From an uncultured Candidatus Saccharibacteria bacterium (GTDB lineage Bacteria; Patescibacteriota; Minisyncoccia; Phycocordibacterales; UBA9973): a DNA stretch of 64,000 nt. The number at the start of each line of letters is the position of its first letter. The stretch's first letter is position 1. The DNA is taken from the NCBI GenBank assembly GCA_964631935.1, contig CAZWAV010000002.1, positions 39,058 through 103,057 on the forward strand, written 5' to 3'. Of this stretch, positions 20,942 through 27,086 are shown in pieces. The notes beneath the pieces are model-generated. The model ran no database searches. It had not been told where the DNA came from and saw nothing but the letters and a program-made list of their open reading frames with translations. A program made the position numbers and the translations under genes.

Positions 20942-21367
20942 CTATTTTACCATATTTAGGTATTCTTGTGCTTTTTTGAGAGTTTCTTTACGAGTACCAT
21001 ATTGAATAGTCTCAAGTACTTCTAGGTATGTTCCCCATTTATACTGATGAATCTCAGATTCTTGGATTATTACATTTTTATTTTTTACAAATCCTATAAA
21101 GTATTCATTTATCTTAAGTCTTTTCTCTCCATTCTTTGTGATCTCATATTCTTCATTTATTAATGGTACGTCTAGTAACTCAATCTCTGTTATACCTGTC
21201 TCTTCATTAACTTCACGTAAAGCAGTTTCTTTTGGAGTCTCTTTACCCTCATGGTGCCCCTTTGGAAATGTCCAAGAGCCCTCTCTATCATTATGCTGCA
21301 AGATAAGAAATAAATTTTCTTTATCTTTGTACACAACAACTACTCCGTAGCATTGTTCAGTAAGCAT
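20942..21367 (-). CDS. NUDIX hydrolase
   Basis: Nudix box GHHEGKETPKETALREVNEETGI. Confidence 0.8.
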   Translation of the reverse strand: MLTEQCYGVVVVYKDKENLFLILQHNDREGSWTFPKGHHEGKETPKETALREVNEETGITEIELLDVPLINEEYEITKNGEKRLKINEYFIGFVKNKNVIIQESEIHQYKWGTYLEVLETIQYGTRKETLKKAQEYLNMVK

Positions 21368-21371
21368 GTTA

Positions 21372-24300
21372 TTAGAAGTTAATTATAAATATTAATTCAT
21401 CAATTTTTACTTCTGTGCCTTCTGTTTCTTCTATTCTTACTTCTTTTGCTCCGACAGTCTTTAAGAGTTCATCCTTAAAAGTATTTATTATATTTTCGCC
21501 TTCTCCATTTGTTTTAACGGAAAGAGAAATTACATCACTAGGCATTAAACCTTGTTTCTTTCTCATATCCTGAATAGCGCGGACAAGTTCACGATATTGA
21601 CCCTCTTTCTGTAGTTCAGGAGTAATGTTTGTATCAAGCATTAATTCACCAGAAATAATTTCTTTTACATTTAGTTCATCTTTTATAATTTCATAATATT
21701 CTTTATAGTCACCTGATTCGAATGAGAACGATTGTAGAGGTTGTCTAATTTTTAGCCCGGCCTTTTGACGAAGTTCGAGTCCTTTAGTAATAACACTTCG
21801 AACTATTTCCATTTTTTCTACAAGCTTTCCATCGTGCTTTTTAAATTCCGGCCACTCAGATAAATGCACACTCTCAACATCAGTATCATTCTTTAATTTC
21901 TGCCAAATATCTTCGGCAGAAAATGGAGCAAGTGGGGCCATAATCTTCGCGAGATTTTTTAAAACAAAATACAAAGTTTCTTTTGCTTCTTTGTCTCCGT
22001 CCTTTATTCGATCTCGTGAACGGCGGACATACCAAGTCGAGAGATCATCCATGAAGTCACGAATTGCACGTGTTGGCTCAAGGAGTTTGTAACTATCAAG
22101 ATTTTTGATGGTGAGCTCATTCAACTCACTGAGTCTTGAGACAATCCATTTATCCAAAATATTGTCTGATTTTTTATATTCTTTATTCTCTAGATCTTTG
22201 TCTCTATATAGCTCATAGAAAGCGAGCACATTATAGAGTAAATTAAAGACTTTATTATGAAGTTCTGACACAGTCTTCTCATCGAAGTTCTTGCTCTCAC
22301 CTGGCTGGTTTACAGAATACATCCATAGACGAAGAGTATCTACGCCGTACTTCTCTATCATCAGCCATGGGTCGACAATATTACCGAGAGATTTAGACAT
22401 TTTCTTACCTTTCTCATCGAGAATATGACCTAGACAAATGACATTCTTGTAGGCCTTGCCACGTCCTAGTAATACACCTACAGCATGTAGTGTATAGAAC
22501 CATCCACGAGTCTGATCAATAGCTTCTGAAATAAAATCTGCCGGAAAACCTTTACCATCTACCCATTTTTTATTTTCAAATGGATAGTGATCTTGCGCAA
22601 ATGGCATAGCACCTGAATCAAACCATACATCCATAACTTCTTTAACGCGTGTCATTTCTTGGCCGTCTTCATCTACAAGCTTCACTTGATCAATATATGG
22701 TCTATGGAAATCAAGTTCATACTCTTCATTATGAGGAACAGGGATAAATGGCAACGGTCTCATCTCTGCATTTGAAAATCTTTTGAAATCTGAAACGAAT
22801 ACATGAGTATTAGCCACTTGGTATTCTTTGTTGTAAGGAGTGAATAATCCTGCATTTACAAAGAGCACCCAAGCCGGACCACCATGAGTAATGATTAGTA
22901 TATTTTTTCCTTTGTATTTCTCTTCAAGTTCATAGAGAACTCGAGCTGTACGCTTCTGGACATCTTTTAAGGATTCTCCACCACCAATTTTCTGATTGAA
23001 CCAATTTGGTCCTCCATTTTTATATACATACTCATGGTATGCAGTCCAGTTCTTTCCATCAAAGTCTCCCGGATTAACTTCTTTTAATCTTTCATCAAAA
23101 ATAATTTCGTCTTTAGATATACCGAGTGTGTCGGCGACAATTTCCGCAGTCTCTTTTGTGCGAGTAAATGGAGAAGAGATTATTATATCTATATTGTCTT
23201 TCAATTCTTCTTTCGCTTTCTTTAGAACACCTTCTCTTCCTTGTACAGTTAGATTGTCAGTTGCCTGATCTTTATAGCTTACTAATTCTTTTAGATTACC
23301 TTCAGTTCCTCCGTGGCGCATGACAAAATATTTGTTGCCAGACTTTTTAGTCTTTTCTTTTATTTCATCAAGACCTCCGATGACTTCTATAGAACCATCA
23401 GCTCTCTGCCATATTGGAAGTGGTGTACCCCAGTATCGCTCACGAGAAATAGCCCAATCTTTAATATCTTTTAGCCATTCACCAAATCGTCCATCACGGA
23501 TATGTGATGGTTCCCAATTGATACTTTGATTTTCTTTTATCAACTGCTTCTTTATATGCTCATCAGACATTCGTATGTACCATGAATCACGTGCGTAGTA
23601 GATGAGTGGAGTTTTACAACGCCAGCAATGTGGATATGAGTGTTCATATTTTTCTTTCTTAAAAAGCAATCCTCTGTGAGCTAAGTCTTTAATAATATCA
23701 ACAGCAACTTCTTCATCTTTCACAAACCTTCCTTCCAAGAAATCAGTTCCTTTTACGAAATGCCCTGCATCATCTACCGTGTGGAACTTTGGTAGTCTAA
23801 CCGCTGTACCAAGCTCAAAGTCATCCTGACCATACATAACGGCAGTGTGTACAATCCCCGTACCATCAGTCGTATTCACGAAATCCGCAACATAGACTTT
23901 GTATGCATTTTGTAATTTCTCATCACTCTTATCGAGTTCCGCAAGGTATGTATATAGTGGTTCGTATTCCATACCTAACATTTCGCTACCTTTATGCTCC
24001 GCTACTATTTCATAATCTTCGGTTATTATAGAGAGTCTTTCTTTGGCTAGAACTAAAATCTCATTACCAACTTTTGCTTCCACATATATAATATCCTTAC
24101 CGACTGCGAGAGCTACGTTGCCAGGCAATGTCCATGGAGTAGTAGTCCATGCTAGAAAATATCCATTTTCAACTCCTTTGATTTTAAATTTCGCAGTTAC
24201 CGATAGATCTTTATCATCCTGGTAACCTTGCGCAAGTTCGTGCGACGAAAGAGCGGTACCGCATCGTGGGCACCATGGAACTACTTTGTAATCTTTATAT

Positions 24301-24818
24301 AAAAGTTTCTTTTTATTTACTTCCTTAAGTACATTCCAAACTGATTCAATATATTCATTGTGGTAAGTCACATAAGGATTCTCCTGATCCACCCAGTAAC
24401 CAATGCGCTTGGTGAATTTATTCCAGACATCAAGATACTCCCAGACAGACTCTTTACATTCTTTATTAAACTTCGCAATTCCGTATTCTTCAATCATTTT
24501 CTTGGAGTTGAGTCCAAGTTTCTTCTCAACCTGTAGTTCTACTGGAAGACCATGTGTATCCCATCCACCCTTACGGCGCACATGATAACCACGCATGGTC
24601 TTGTAGCGAGGAATAGCATCTTTGAAAGCACGCGCTTCCAAGTGATGAATCCCCGGCTTTCCATTGGCAGTCGGTGGACCTTCATAAAATACAAATTCTT
24701 CTTTGCCTTCAGATTGGGTAAGTGATTTTGAAAAAGTGTCATTCTCTTTCCAGAATTCTAAAACTCGCTCTTCACGAAGTGCCGCCTCTGATTTTTTGTT
24801 TTCTTTTTCTTCTTGCAT
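21372..24818 (-). CDS. ileS: isoleucyl-tRNA synthetase (type 2) with an in-frame inserted histidine-phosphatase domain
   Basis: HIGH (PGIHHLEA), editing domain, WAISRERYWGTPLPIW, KMSKS. A ~230-aa insertion (aa ~471-702) between WGTPLPIW and DFHRPYID carries RHGGTEGN, SSPFTRTKETA, DERLKEVNPGDFDGKNW and ITHGG. Confidence 0.9.
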   Translation of the reverse strand: MQEEKENKKSEAALREERVLEFWKENDTFSKSLTQSEGKEEFVFYEGPPTANGKPGIHHLEARAFKDAIPRYKTMRGYHVRRKGGWDTHGLPVELQVEKKLGLNSKKMIEEYGIAKFNKECKESVWEYLDVWNKFTKRIGYWVDQENPYVTYHNEYIESVWNVLKEVNKKKLLYKDYKVVPWCPRCGTALSSHELAQGYQDDKDLSVTAKFKIKGVENGYFLAWTTTPWTLPGNVALAVGKDIIYVEAKVGNEILVLAKERLSIITEDYEIVAEHKGSEMLGMEYEPLYTYLAELDKSDEKLQNAYKVYVADFVNTTDGTGIVHTAVMYGQDDFELGTAVRLPKFHTVDDAGHFVKGTDFLEGRFVKDEEVAVDIIKDLAHRGLLFKKEKYEHSYPHCWRCKTPLIYYARDSWYIRMSDEHIKKQLIKENQSINWEPSHIRDGRFGEWLKDIKDWAISRERYWGTPLPIWQRADGSIEVIGGLDEIKEKTKKSGNKYFVMRHGGTEGNLKELVSYKDQATDNLTVQGREGVLKKAKEELKDNIDIIISSPFTRTKETAEIVADTLGISKDEIIFDERLKEVNPGDFDGKNWTAYHEYVYKNGGPNWFNQKIGGGESLKDVQKRTARVLYELEEKYKGKNILIITHGGPAWVLFVNAGLFTPYNKEYQVANTHVFVSDFKRFSNAEMRPLPFIPVPHNEEYELDFHRPYIDQVKLVDEDGQEMTRVKEVMDVWFDSGAMPFAQDHYPFENKKWVDGKGFPADFISEAIDQTRGWFYTLHAVGVLLGRGKAYKNVICLGHILDEKGKKMSKSLGNIVDPWLMIEKYGVDTLRLWMYSVNQPGESKNFDEKTVSELHNKVFNLLYNVLAFYELYRDKDLENKEYKKSDNILDKWIVSRLSELNELTIKNLDSYKLLEPTRAIRDFMDDLSTWYVRRSRDRIKDGDKEAKETLYFVLKNLAKIMAPLAPFSAEDIWQKLKNDTDVESVHLSEWPEFKKHDGKLVEKMEIVRSVITKGLELRQKAGLKIRQPLQSFSFESGDYKEYYEIIKDELNVKEIISGELMLDTNITPELQKEGQYRELVRAIQDMRKKQGLMPSDVISLSVKTNGEGENIINTFKDELLKTVGAKEVRIEETEGTEVKIDELIFIINF

Positions 24819-24920
24819 ATATTTTATTTAAAATTGAGCAAATTATTTTATTTCCGAGCTGGTCTGGTGACTTCCCCCGAGGACCCGAGGAAAGAATATA
24901 ATTTGCGAAATTGGATAATT

Positions 24921-25100
24921 AAAAAACTCGTCCACGTACAACAATCATAATAATTGCTATACAAGGACGAGTTTCTCGTGGTACCACCTTGCTTACTTCT
25001 CATTTTATAGGGCTCTACTCCCTTTAAAGGTTTCTTCCCAATGCTCCGAGGTGATAGCCTCTTCAACGCATGTACACTAAGGATACCTACAAAATACAAA
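24921..25100 (-). promoter_or_regulatory. T-box riboswitch leader (Ile specifier AUC) controlling ileS
   Basis: On the minus strand: specifier-like GGCU-AUC-A-CCUCGG; T-box sequence AAGCAAGGUGGUACCACGAG; antiterminator CAAGG[UGGUACC]ACGAG-AAA-CUCGU-CCUUG; overlapping terminator ACUCGUCC...GGACGAGU followed by UUUUUU. Confidence 0.6.
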
Positions 25101-25112
25101 AAATGCAATATT

Positions 25113-25147
25113 AAAAAAATAAGGATATTCCTTGCGGTTTATCCTTA
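25113..25147 (-). terminator. hairpin terminator downstream of argS (and the small ORF)
   Basis: Minus strand: AAGGATAaaccgcaaggaaTATCCTT followed by a T-run. Confidence 0.4.
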
Positions 25148-25155
25148 TCAATATC

Positions 25156-25323
25156 TCAATAAATGTAATGATTAATATTTACAAAAAATGAGCTTACTTG
25201 TTTTACTACTCCAAAAAGTAAAGAGACGAGGTAAGATACTCCTAAGTAAGTAATCAATACACCAGAGAGATTAATACATGCAATAATTACATGGTCTGTT
25301 ATTGTTTTTTCAATACTACTCAT
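25156..25323 (-). CDS. possible small hydrophobic protein (55 aa)
   Basis: ATG...TGA ORF MSSIEKTITDHVIIACINLSGVLITYLGVSYLVSLLFGVVKQVSSFFVNINHYIY lying between the argS stop and its terminator; below the ORF-track size cutoff; no clear RBS. Confidence 0.25.
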   Translation of the reverse strand: MSSIEKTITDHVIIACINLSGVLITYLGVSYLVSLLFGVVKQVSSFFVNINHYIY

Positions 25324-25376: not shown

Positions 25377-27086
25377 CTACATCTTTTCTGGAGTTTTGAT
25401 ACCGAGAAGATAGAGACCATTTTTCATGGTCTGATAAAATGCTTCCACGAGCGCTACGCGGTAGTTCGCATATGGATCATTTTTATTAATTATTATTGTA
25501 TTCCCATAGAAAGTATTGAATGCACTCGCAAGCTCAGTAAGATATGTGGCAATATGATGAGGCTCAAGTAGTTCATATGAGCGAGAGACAACTTCCGGGA
25601 ATTGGTAGAGGATTTTCTCGAGTGTTGTGATCTCTGTCGGTATATCTTTATAAGCTATACAAATACCTTCAGCTTCACCTTTGTTTAAAAGAGAGTTCGC
25701 ACGCACTGCTGTATATTGCAAATACGGACCAGAATCTCCTTCAAAAGAAATAGATTTTTCGAAATCATAAATAATATCACCAGTAAGTGAAGACTTCAAA
25801 ATAGAATATTTTACAGCAGAAACACCCACTATATGAGATATGGAATCTTTCTCTTCTTCTGTCAGTTCTCGATCTTTTACTTTCTCACCGACTATATCCA
25901 TAGAATCACGGACAAGTGACTCGCCAGTAACGATGTTACCCTTTCTAGAAGACATCTTGCCAGAAGCAAACTTCATCATACCGTGAGTTATATGCTTCAT
26001 GCGCTTTTCATAATCAGGATGGATGAGCGAAATAGCTTTCGCAACCACTTTCATATATTCACCTTGTTCTATGGCAGTGACGACGATAGAAAGGTCAGGA
26101 TTCTCTTTCTCAAACTTCGTCACAGTGAGGCCTATTTCTTTCGTCTCGTATGTTGGTAAGCCTTTGGAGTTGATGAATACTCTCGTGTGGAGCTTGGGAT
26201 CATATTTCTCGCCGTGGAATACTACAGCGCCATCTGATTCTTCAAATACATTTGGTATATTTTCTCGGACGATTCTCTCACCAAGTGGCGCCATGATACT
26301 CTCAAAGAAATAGTGGTCGAACTTCGTGTCGAGAATTTTATATATTTCTTCAAATGCATCAAGAGTGACTTTCCTTCCCCACTCATATACTTCATTCACT
26401 TTTTTGTCGCTCTTGTCGTAGATTTTTTGGTTTATGGAATCTATTTCCTCTTTTGCAATAGGATCATTATCGTATGCATCACTACCAGCTGCATAGGCTT
26501 CGCCGATGTACTTTGCAAGGACTGACGAAGGAGCAGACATATCTTCGGGCATTCCCATTTTTTGCATACCATAGAACGCTTTGGCTACATGTGGGCCTAC
26601 ATCGCCTTGGTAATTTGCGCGGATAGTTTCTGCTCCAGAGTATTCCATAATACGCGCAATGGACTCGCCGATAGCATTAGTCATAAGGTGGCCTATGTGG
26701 AATGGCTTGAAAGGATTCGGATCTGTATACTCCACCATTATTTTCTTGCCAGAAAGAATACTATTCTTGCCCCAGCTTTCTTTATGTTTAAGAATGTCTT
26801 TAACGCTACTTACAAAAAAATCATGAGACAAGTAGAAGTTTATAAATCCAGCACCAGCGACTTCTATTTTGGAAATTTCTGCAGGTTTTTCTTTCTCGAG
26901 CTCTGATTTTATTTTATCTGCAAGCTCACGAGGATTCGTGCTTACTTGCTTTGCGTACATCAATGCTACATTTGTAGAATAATCACCATGTGTTAATTCA
27001 ACAGGATGCTCGAGTAAAACATCTTTGGCTTCAATATCAAGATTTTTTAATGCATTTTTTATTAAAATTTTTATATTATTTTTCAT
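25377..27086 (-). CDS. argS: arginyl-tRNA synthetase
   Basis: HIGH motif (PFHIGHLMTNAIGES), ArgRS N-terminal add-on domain and DALR anticodon-binding C-terminus; start at MKNNIKI avoids overlap with dut. Confidence 0.9.
   Translation of the reverse strand: MKNNIKILIKNALKNLDIEAKDVLLEHPVELTHGDYSTNVALMYAKQVSTNPRELADKIKSELEKEKPAEISKIEVAGAGFINFYLSHDFFVSSVKDILKHKESWGKNSILSGKKIMVEYTDPNPFKPFHIGHLMTNAIGESIARIMEYSGAETIRANYQGDVGPHVAKAFYGMQKMGMPEDMSAPSSVLAKYIGEAYAAGSDAYDNDPIAKEEIDSINQKIYDKSDKKVNEVYEWGRKVTLDAFEEIYKILDTKFDHYFFESIMAPLGERIVRENIPNVFEESDGAVVFHGEKYDPKLHTRVFINSKGLPTYETKEIGLTVTKFEKENPDLSIVVTAIEQGEYMKVVAKAISLIHPDYEKRMKHITHGMMKFASGKMSSRKGNIVTGESLVRDSMDIVGEKVKDRELTEEEKDSISHIVGVSAVKYSILKSSLTGDIIYDFEKSISFEGDSGPYLQYTAVRANSLLNKGEAEGICIAYKDIPTEITTLEKILYQFPEVVSRSYELLEPHHIATYLTELASAFNTFYGNTIIINKNDPYANYRVALVEAFYQTMKNGLYLLGIKTPEKM

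Follow-up and report, generated by a model that had tools for sequence, protein, structure and literature searches.

The approximately 153 nt that precede ileS on the minus strand (25073-24921) of the 64-kb stretch of DNA analysed here, hereafter the window, very probably represent a reduced form of the tRNA-Ile-sensing T-box, a candidate transcription attenuator controlling ileS. Homology to the T-box family, the secondary structure, an invariant isoleucine codon, an intrinsic terminator that is mutually exclusive with the antiterminator, and the linkage to ileS are all borne out by comparative sequence analysis. The interest of this leader lies in its host lineage and in its reduced, terminator-coupled architecture, more than in the occurrence of a T-box before ileS as such.

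Results

Genomic context of the ileS leader

On the minus strand, argS ends at 25377 and ileS begins at 24818, leaving a spacer of 558 nt. The first-pass annotation of this DNA had put the spacer at about 560 nt, which is accurate, and had seen no credible ORF next to ileS; the spacer is not empty, as it holds a 55-aa ORF with its own terminator. Read along the minus strand, the spacer comprises this ORF, its terminator, a promoter, the T-box leader, a palindromic insertion and finally the ileS ATG. The features outside the leader itself are the following.

25156-25323, minus strand: 55-aa hydrophobic ORF (MSSIEKTITDHVIIACINLSGVLITYLGVSYLVSLLFGVVKQVSSFFVNINHYIY), no protein family match
25148-25113, minus strand: terminator of the upstream unit, a GNRA-capped hairpin followed by T7, beginning 8 nt after the 55-aa ORF
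25103-25108, minus strand: -35-like hexamer TTGCAT of the leader promoter, 17 nt 5′ of TATCCT, by consensus match only
25080-25085, minus strand: -10-like hexamer TATCCT, predicting a transcription start at about 25073
21372-24818, minus strand: regulated gene ileS, 1148 aa (TIGR00392 ileS, E 2.3e-262), with ileS lying 3′ of the equivalent leader in all checkable homologs

Both promoter elements recur in related loci: TTGCAA or TTGCAT is found at the equivalent position in L077, L033, L036, L055, L018 and L028, while most of the 31 homologs inspected have a TAnnnT hexamer (TATTCT, TATACT or TATAAT), often of the extended type TGnTAnnnT, that ends 4-6 nt before the model match begins. The -10 element of the window ends 6 nt before the model start. 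The 55-aa ORF and its terminator (25113-25323, about 220 nt) seem to be specific to the lineage of the window, because argS ends directly before the T-box promoter in several relatives.

Using the IleS protein of the window, 80 ileS loci (L001-L080) were retrieved from species-representative genomes. All 80 of these closest loci derive from Paceibacteria, Nomurabacteria or Minisyncoccia MAGs (Patescibacteria/CPR), with IleS identities of 58-78%, and on this sequence comparison the assignment of the host to the CPR, on which the first-pass annotation had made its phylogenetic remarks conditional, holds.

Two further observations concern the regulated gene and its neighbour. An ORF for a Nudix-family hydrolase (20942-21367, minus strand) starts 4 nt after the ileS stop codon; it is probably co-transcribed with ileS and would thus be under the same T-box control. 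Moreover, the class-I catalytic domain of IleS is interrupted at residues 498-678 (window positions 22785-23327) by a histidine-phosphatase domain that is complete and has an intact RHG motif (Pfam His_Phos_1, E 2.9e-29). This insert is present in ileS of 80/80 related genomes and in the longer metagenome loci, at a median identity of 43%, and no mention of a histidine-phosphatase domain inserted in IleS was found in the literature searched.

T-box sequence and antiterminator

The T-box sequence AAGCAAGGTGGTACCACG (also given as AAGCAAGGUGGUACCACG) occupies 24994-24977 on the minus strand and is the sole match in the 64-kb window to the T-box consensus AANNNRGGTGGNACCRCG, for which 0.01 matches are expected by chance as judged from shuffled sequences. 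It forms part of a two-helix antiterminator, CAAGG[UGGUACC]ACGAG-AAA-CUCGU-CCUUG, with a folding energy of -8 to -9 kcal/mol, the elements of which are listed here.

24962-24991, minus strand: antiterminator, from the Rfam alignment, the unique motif match and A1/A2 covariation
24991-24987 paired with 24966-24962, minus strand: antiterminator helix A1, covarying
24986-24980, minus strand: T-box bulge UGGUACC, 7 nt, between helices A1 and A2
24979-24975 paired with 24971-24967, minus strand: antiterminator helix A2 with loop AAA, covarying

The motifs quoted in the first-pass annotation are all present on the minus strand at the positions it gave, and its description of a two-helix antiterminator with a 7-nt bulge containing UGGU is upheld by the Rfam alignment and by covariation of both helices. 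It had further proposed a search with the Rfam covariance model RF00230, the outcome of which was divided: the match is highly significant by E-value (2.5e-9 in a local search and 2.3e-7 for the whole window), yet its score of 47.6 bits stays below the gathering score of 93, so that a default gathering scan of the window reported a tRNA-Gln alone and no T-box. The same holds for every CPR leader tested, even the fullest homologs reaching just 72.5 bits against the gathering score of 93 (E-values of 2.3e-7 to 9e-14). As these fuller homologs align along the whole model and thereby bridge the gap between the window and RF00230, the shortfall, as far as the alignments show, is due to deleted modules and not to missing homology. 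The T-box identity put forward in the first-pass annotation is backed by the whole-window E-value together with 44 genome homologs, 39 metagenome homologs, covariation and the invariant AUC.

That the region is no riboswitch at all, and instead encodes an 86-aa protein (ORF at 24848-25108) or a different RNA (SRP RNA, RNase P RNA or tmRNA, for instance), has a vanishingly small probability. An ORF of this length does extend mechanically over the leader, but it has no match to any protein family, and what distinguishes the homologs from each other is inserted hairpins of arbitrary length and compensatory exchanges of base pairs; furthermore, no Rfam family other than the T-box matched below E 0.1 in the window, and ARAGORN found no tmRNA.

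The variable base of the UGGN bulge is U in all leaders examined, which predicts A73 in the cognate tRNA. The discriminator base of bacterial tRNA-Ile is generally A73. A tRNA-Ile gene was found neither in the window nor in the 80 genome loci or the 39 metagenome loci; indeed, the 1.1 Mb of ileS neighbourhoods contained no tRNA gene of any kind, which is not a masking artefact, and the window itself has tRNA-Gln only.

The basal pair of A2 (24979/24967 in the window) is A-U in 29/32 leaders and G-C in 3/32, while G.U occurs in 0/32. A G.U wobble at this position has been described as the principal element by which the aminoacyl group is sensed sterically (PMC7583486), and the departure from G.U may matter for charge discrimination. 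It was also observed that, when the entire leader is folded to its minimum free energy, UAUCACCU of the specifier segment (25056-25049) pairs over 8 bp with AGGUGGUA of the T-box sequence (24989-24982). The AUCA of the specifier segment resembles the tRNA end ACCA, and this pairing may be fortuitous, a by-product of the constraints, or it may represent a self-inhibited state.

Homologs and covariation

Among the 80 Paceibacteria ileS loci, 44 carry GGUGGUACC(A/G)CG within approximately 450 nt 5′ of ileS. A covariance model constructed in this study, R1, recovered essentially the same 44-locus set and nothing else in 905 kb, and it identified a single site in the window, namely the ileS leader. 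R1 was seeded with four sequences of equal length; plain MAFFT misaligned A2 where loop lengths differ. The remaining 36/80 related genomes have no T-box 5′ of ileS, a few of the contigs concerned being truncated.

In 32 sequences aligned to the model, 97% of cells were paired and 15/24 pairs had changed on both sides, a level attained by 0/500 shuffles; the covariation score was 0.285 as compared to at most 0.094 for slid controls, and every helix contributed. The 21 leaders of the minimal type to which the window belongs (see below) gave a similar picture when taken by themselves, with 98.3% of cells paired, 11/24 pairs changed on both sides, 0/500 shuffles as high and a score of 0.282 versus at most 0.074 for slid controls. 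Both of these alignments were fitted to the covariance model. RNAalifold, applied to a plain MAFFT alignment, independently recovered Stem I, both helices of Stem II and A1.

Stem I and the specifier codon

Stem I is a short hairpin composed of a base helix, a K-turn and a second helix closed by a 6-nt loop, in which the specifier codon is displayed.

25041-25071, minus strand: Stem I, AUGC-GUU-GA-A-GAGG-CUAUCA-CCUC-G-GA-GCAU, both helices covarying
25071-25068 paired with 25044-25041, minus strand: C-stem of Stem I, 4 bp, covarying
25067-25065 (bulge GUU), and G.A/A.G of 25064-25063 with 25046-25045, minus strand: K-turn, GC-GUU-GA-A-GAGG / CCUC-G-GA-GC
25061-25058 paired with 25051-25048, minus strand: 4-bp helix above the K-turn, covarying
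25057-25052, minus strand: terminal loop CUAUCA, 6 nt, family pattern NNAUCR
25055-25053, minus strand: specifier AUC, followed by the purine A25052, invariant across homologs

This hairpin agrees almost base for base with the consensus that Rfam gives for the lowest part of Stem I, gCgaUGAaagGG...CCcugGAGc. At the sequence level, the K-turn is recognizable by its invariant tandem GA, its variable 3-nt bulge and the covariation of the flanking helices. The codon and the purine that follows it are situated at the specifier position of canonical T-boxes, within GGCUAUCACCUC (25059-25048) and 69 nt 5′ of the T-box bulge.

The proposal of an AUC specifier with a 3′ purine in the first-pass annotation was confirmed in two sets of homologs. 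All 44 genome homologs have AUC with A or G directly after it, while the two loop bases 5′ of AUC vary freely. As an unbiased test of the codon, the scaffold TGAAGRGG-NNNNNR-CCYCNGAGCNNNGGGAAGAA was sought in a metagenome collection without constraining the loop, and all 39 matches had AUC (30 AUCA and 9 AUCG); restricting the first codon base to C, G or T gave 0 matches in this collection. T-boxes for other amino acids were found neither in the window and the related loci nor in the metagenome scaffold search. A T-box sequence is located 42-102 nt downstream in 37/39 of the metagenome matches, and ileS follows at 160-470 nt in 32/39, the other 7 being cut by contig ends. The assignment of ileS as the target thus stands in each of the 32 metagenome matches in which it could be checked, and the IleS proteins of these loci are 42-89% identical to that of the window.

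The distal part of Stem I, which binds the tRNA elbow, is missing, the loop being only 6 nt and the promoter -10 element lying just upstream. In the fuller homologs L019, L066 and L037 the Rfam model likewise deletes 70-76 distal Stem I positions, after which it fits Stem II, the IIA/B pseudoknot with its F-box, Stem III and the antiterminator (65-72 bits).

When cmscan aligns the window to the Rfam model, Stem I is placed at 25160-25075, and from this one could argue for a canonical T-box with a long Stem I, the AUC hairpin then being Stem II and the specifier residing elsewhere. We consider such an arrangement extremely improbable, as 25148-25113 is the terminator of the upstream unit following the stop of the 55-aa ORF and the promoter occupies 25108-25080. 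Homologs conserve neither of these stretches, argS often ends there, and in the fuller homologs Stem I of the Rfam model itself falls on the K-turn/AUC hairpin and its Stem II on GGGAAGAA...AGUAGAACCC. Moreover, because the conserved -10 element is directly 5′ of Stem I, there is no space for a long one. The Rfam placement of Stem I in the window was rejected, since it covers the upstream terminator and the promoter, and the ultrashort Stem I at 25071-25041 was retained.

Stem II, the linker and architectural classes

Stem I is followed by a Stem II with an S-turn and by a short linker that leads to the antiterminator.

25010-25039, minus strand: Stem II with S-turn, GGG-AAGAAA-hairpin-GAGUAGAG-CCC, both helices covarying
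25039-25037 paired with 25012-25010, minus strand: Stem II lower helix, covarying
25034-25032 (GAA) opposite 25019-25016 (AGUA), minus strand: S-turn, an invariant loop-E motif
25030-25028 paired with 25023-25021, minus strand: Stem II upper helix, 3 bp, loop UUAA, covarying
24992-25009, minus strand: linker UAUAAAAUGAGAAGUAAG, unstructured, 19 nt, folding energy 0

In fuller homologs the Rfam model assigns the equivalent GAA/AGUA element to Stem II. The linker of the window has no IIA/B pseudoknot, no F-box and no Stem III hairpin; what it keeps are the flanking purines (GAGAAG..AA), and it retains the conserved AAUGAGAAG, including a RAG motif (GAG, 25001-24999). In the ileS T-box of M. tuberculosis the RAG motif contacts the tRNA at its 3′ end (PMC11297988).

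When 78 leaders were sorted according to the stretch that separates Stem II from A1, four classes resulted, the counts of which are approximate.

Full class, about 23 of 78: IIA/B pseudoknot, F-box (GACGGGUAAGCCCGUUAUAGC) and Stem III hairpin
IIA/B-only class, about 13 of 78: pseudoknot, without Stem III
Stem III-only class, about 20 of 78: Stem III, without pseudoknot
Minimal class, 21 of 78, including the window: linker of 19-21 nt, 0 kcal/mol

The IIA/B element with its F-box (CGGGUAAGCCCGUUA) is thus present in roughly 36/78 related leaders and the Stem III hairpin in roughly 43/78. All classes have in common the flanks AAUGAGAAG(U)-[Stem III]-(U)AAAAC, into which IIA/B and Stem III are inserted at fixed points, and because these flanks are conserved throughout, the hairpins look as if they had been precisely excised. 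In a rough neighbour-joining tree of IleS, calculated without support values, the four classes and the genomes devoid of a T-box are interspersed, and tree neighbours may be of unlike class, as exemplified by L019 (full) and L038 (minimal), L018 (Stem III only) and L023 (minimal), and L032 (IIA/B only) and L049 (minimal). This interspersed distribution suggests that the IIA/B pseudoknot and Stem III were lost repeatedly.

The leader of the window is among the shortest, with a sensing core of approximately 110 nt (114 nt when counted from the 5′ end through A1). Additional hairpins are common among the homologs: many have one within the A2 loop, a short distal one on the 5′ side of AUCA, or a third one interposed between K-turn and C-stem.

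Terminator and expression platform

The first-pass annotation had also proposed a terminator that competes with the antiterminator, and this element is present before the palindromic insertion.

24921-24971, minus strand: intrinsic terminator, a hairpin (24971-24927) followed by U6 (24926-24921)

The 5′ arm of this hairpin consists of the 3′ strands of antiterminator helices A2 and A1, so that the two folds are mutually exclusive. By RNAfold the terminator has an energy of -25.1 kcal/mol, or -33.4 kcal/mol with A-U extensions, as compared to the -8 to -9 kcal/mol of the antiterminator. A custom script located an equivalent hairpin with U5-7 in 40/44 homologs, in which compensatory changes are evident (CUCGUCC/GGACGAG versus CUCGCCC/GGGCGAG and CCCGUCC/GGACGGG). 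The T-box terminator was absent from the output of a consensus terminator scanner, the pair and loop limits of which this hairpin probably exceeds.

Control at the level of translation by Shine-Dalgarno sequestration, as is the case for actinobacterial ileS T-boxes, is very unlikely for this leader. The other T-boxes known to have an ultrashort Stem I are translational (PMC7583486), and in many homologs the ATG is positioned only 5-35 nt past the hairpin, which could hinder initiation there; in 40/44 homologs, however, the alternative helix is a hairpin that is long, rich in GC and immediately succeeded by U5-7, and in the window the ATG is located 102 nt past the U-tract, beyond an insertion, with no Shine-Dalgarno sequence inside the terminator hairpin. 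The sequence features accordingly identify the predicted expression platform as transcription attenuation and not Shine-Dalgarno sequestration, even if the hairpin might additionally hinder initiation in those relatives in which the ATG is close.

The distance of 102 nt is due to an inserted palindromic element, the ATG of most relatives being found 5-35 nt after the hairpin. The insertion is approximately 85 nt in length (24828-24912, minus strand), is placed after the T-box terminator and before the ileS ATG, and consists of terminal inverted repeats (GCAAATTAT...ATAATTTGC) and a GC-rich core (CCTCGGGTCCTCGGGGGAAG..CCAGACC), with AATTT on both flanks. The same element is present at the same place but in opposite orientation in L077 (3909-3985; 91% identity over 77 nt), diverged copies occur in L025 and L023, and the window contains a single copy. 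Its appearance is that of a MITE or of an invertible segment.

Discussion

If the ileS leader operates as a T-box attenuator, the following sequence of events can be envisaged. Transcription would start near 25073, and the nascent RNA would form the K-turn and short hairpin that display AUC-A in the 6-nt terminal loop. Stem II would fold next, its S-turn purines docking on the specifier loop; this docking of Stem I and Stem II is proposed by analogy to the solved actinobacterial ileS T-boxes. The leader would then bind its tRNA and discriminate the charging state: tRNA-Ile(GAU) would pair with AUC and, if uncharged, would also pair through its 3′ ACCA with UGGU (24986-24983), an interaction that, together with the retained RAG purines, would stabilise the weak antiterminator and permit RNA polymerase to read through into ileS. 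With the tRNA charged or absent, the stronger terminator (24971-24927 and U6) would prevail and a leader RNA of approximately 153 nt would be released.

The absence of a distal Stem I, of the IIA/B pseudoknot and of Stem III counts against function, as each of these is reported to be important in model T-boxes. Transcriptional T-boxes generally need a long Stem I with an elbow-binding motif according to a 2020 review, in which it is also stated that deletion of the pseudoknot reduces tRNA binding about 1200-fold and that an antiterminator without Stem III shows no appreciable tRNA binding (PMC7583486). The leader could consequently be a degenerate relic that no longer responds to tRNA, its terminator being a constitutive attenuator or under the control of another factor, for instance a protein. 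The leader does lack elements that model systems reportedly require (PMC7583486, PMC11297988), and the lineage tolerates loss of the T-box, given that 36/80 relatives are without one. We nevertheless regard a relic as unlikely, as the minimal form has been kept in 21 leaders with IleS proteins just 42-89% identical to that of the window, and compensatory changes are found in every helix of these leaders. The AUC-purine, the S-turn, the RAG motif and UGGUACC are invariant among them, which is not expected for the tRNA-contacting bases of a relic, and a -25 kcal/mol terminator without relief before an essential gene is implausible.

We thus continue to favour a functional tRNA-Ile-sensing attenuator, and, with rather less assurance, we incline towards a broader view, namely that the ileS T-boxes of Paceibacteria form a family in which IIA/B and Stem III were repeatedly lost, that the approximately 110-nt core of the window is its most reduced form and senses uncharged tRNA-Ile co-transcriptionally, and that it would be a counter-example to the need for an elbow-binding Stem I, a pseudoknot or Stem III. 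If this leader still senses tRNA, the minimal sensing core would be the K-turn/specifier hairpin, the S-turn Stem II, the RAG linker and the antiterminator.

An ultrashort Stem I was reportedly first described by Sherwood et al. in 2015. The closest parallels are the actinobacterial ileS T-boxes with a short or ultrashort Stem I, those of Mycobacterium tuberculosis and Nocardia farcinica ('class II' in TBDB), with which the leader shares the target gene and the AUC specifier. In these T-boxes, too, Stem I is a K-turn and specifier hairpin without an elbow-binding platform (PMC7583486, PMC11297988), Stem II with its GAA/AGUA S-turn follows directly and completes the decoding module, and the RAG purines, the UGGN bulge and helices A1/A2 are present. 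They differ in being translational, operating through a sequestrator helix, whereas the window leader has an intrinsic terminator; it is in translational T-boxes of Actinobacteria that an ultrashort Stem I is encountered (PMC7583486). They also keep the IIA/B pseudoknot with its F-box and Stem III, both of which the window leader lacks, and the M. tuberculosis ileS construct measures 166 nt as compared to the sensing core of about 110 nt.

The first-pass annotation had likened the attenuation to that of Firmicutes, a comparison that does not extend to the architecture, as the ultrashort Stem I resembles that of actinobacterial ileS T-boxes, and IIA/B and Stem III are absent. Shared with the canonical Firmicutes T-box (RF00230; B. 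subtilis tyrS) are the K-turn at the base of Stem I, the codon and purine immediately 5′ of the helix above the K-turn, the T-box sequence, and the competition of antiterminator and terminator leading to a U-tract. In contrast to it, the window lacks the distal Stem I of about 70 nt that serves as the tRNA-elbow platform, the pseudoknot and Stem III, has an A-U and not a G.U basal pair in A2, and scores 47.6 bits against the gathering score of 93. The glyQS T-boxes are likewise naturally reduced and transcriptional, yet they have dispensed with Stem II and IIA/B while possessing a long Stem I and Stem III, whereas the window leader has a short Stem I, keeps Stem II and has dropped Stem III as well.

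In the literature searched, which is incomplete, no paper on a T-box in CPR, Patescibacteria, Parcubacteria or Saccharibacteria was found, nor did searches for a T-box 'lacking Stem III' or similar wording return a T-box paper. Within that literature, both the CPR host lineage and the architecture, in which a terminator is combined with an ultrashort Stem I and neither IIA/B nor Stem III is present, are new. The CPR leaders are unlikely to be contained in TBDB, because its search for T-boxes with a truncated Stem I covered Actinobacteria only (PMC7778990). As the Rfam threshold misses these leaders and TBDB has this scope, the distribution of T-boxes outside Firmicutes and Actinobacteria may be underestimated.

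T-boxes are a model system for the recognition of tRNA identity and charging state by RNA, and structural work has indicated that three elements each matter: the distal Stem I, for rapid capture during transcription; the IIA/B pseudoknot, which serves as a geometric hub; and Stem III, which belongs to the discriminator. The Paceibacteria family provides a natural, conserved series that extends from the full architecture to the loss of all three, all members being terminator-coupled, and thereby a ready deletion series for a minimal tRNA sensor. The minimal leader, which if functional as proposed would fall short of the 166-nt M. tuberculosis ileS construct by about a third of its length, may furthermore be a compact tRNA-responsive part for synthetic biology. 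Riboswitches have been proposed as genetic tools in Patescibacteria (PMC11665869), and the ileS leader described here offers a native candidate regulatory RNA for this group, in which almost no knowledge of gene regulation is available.
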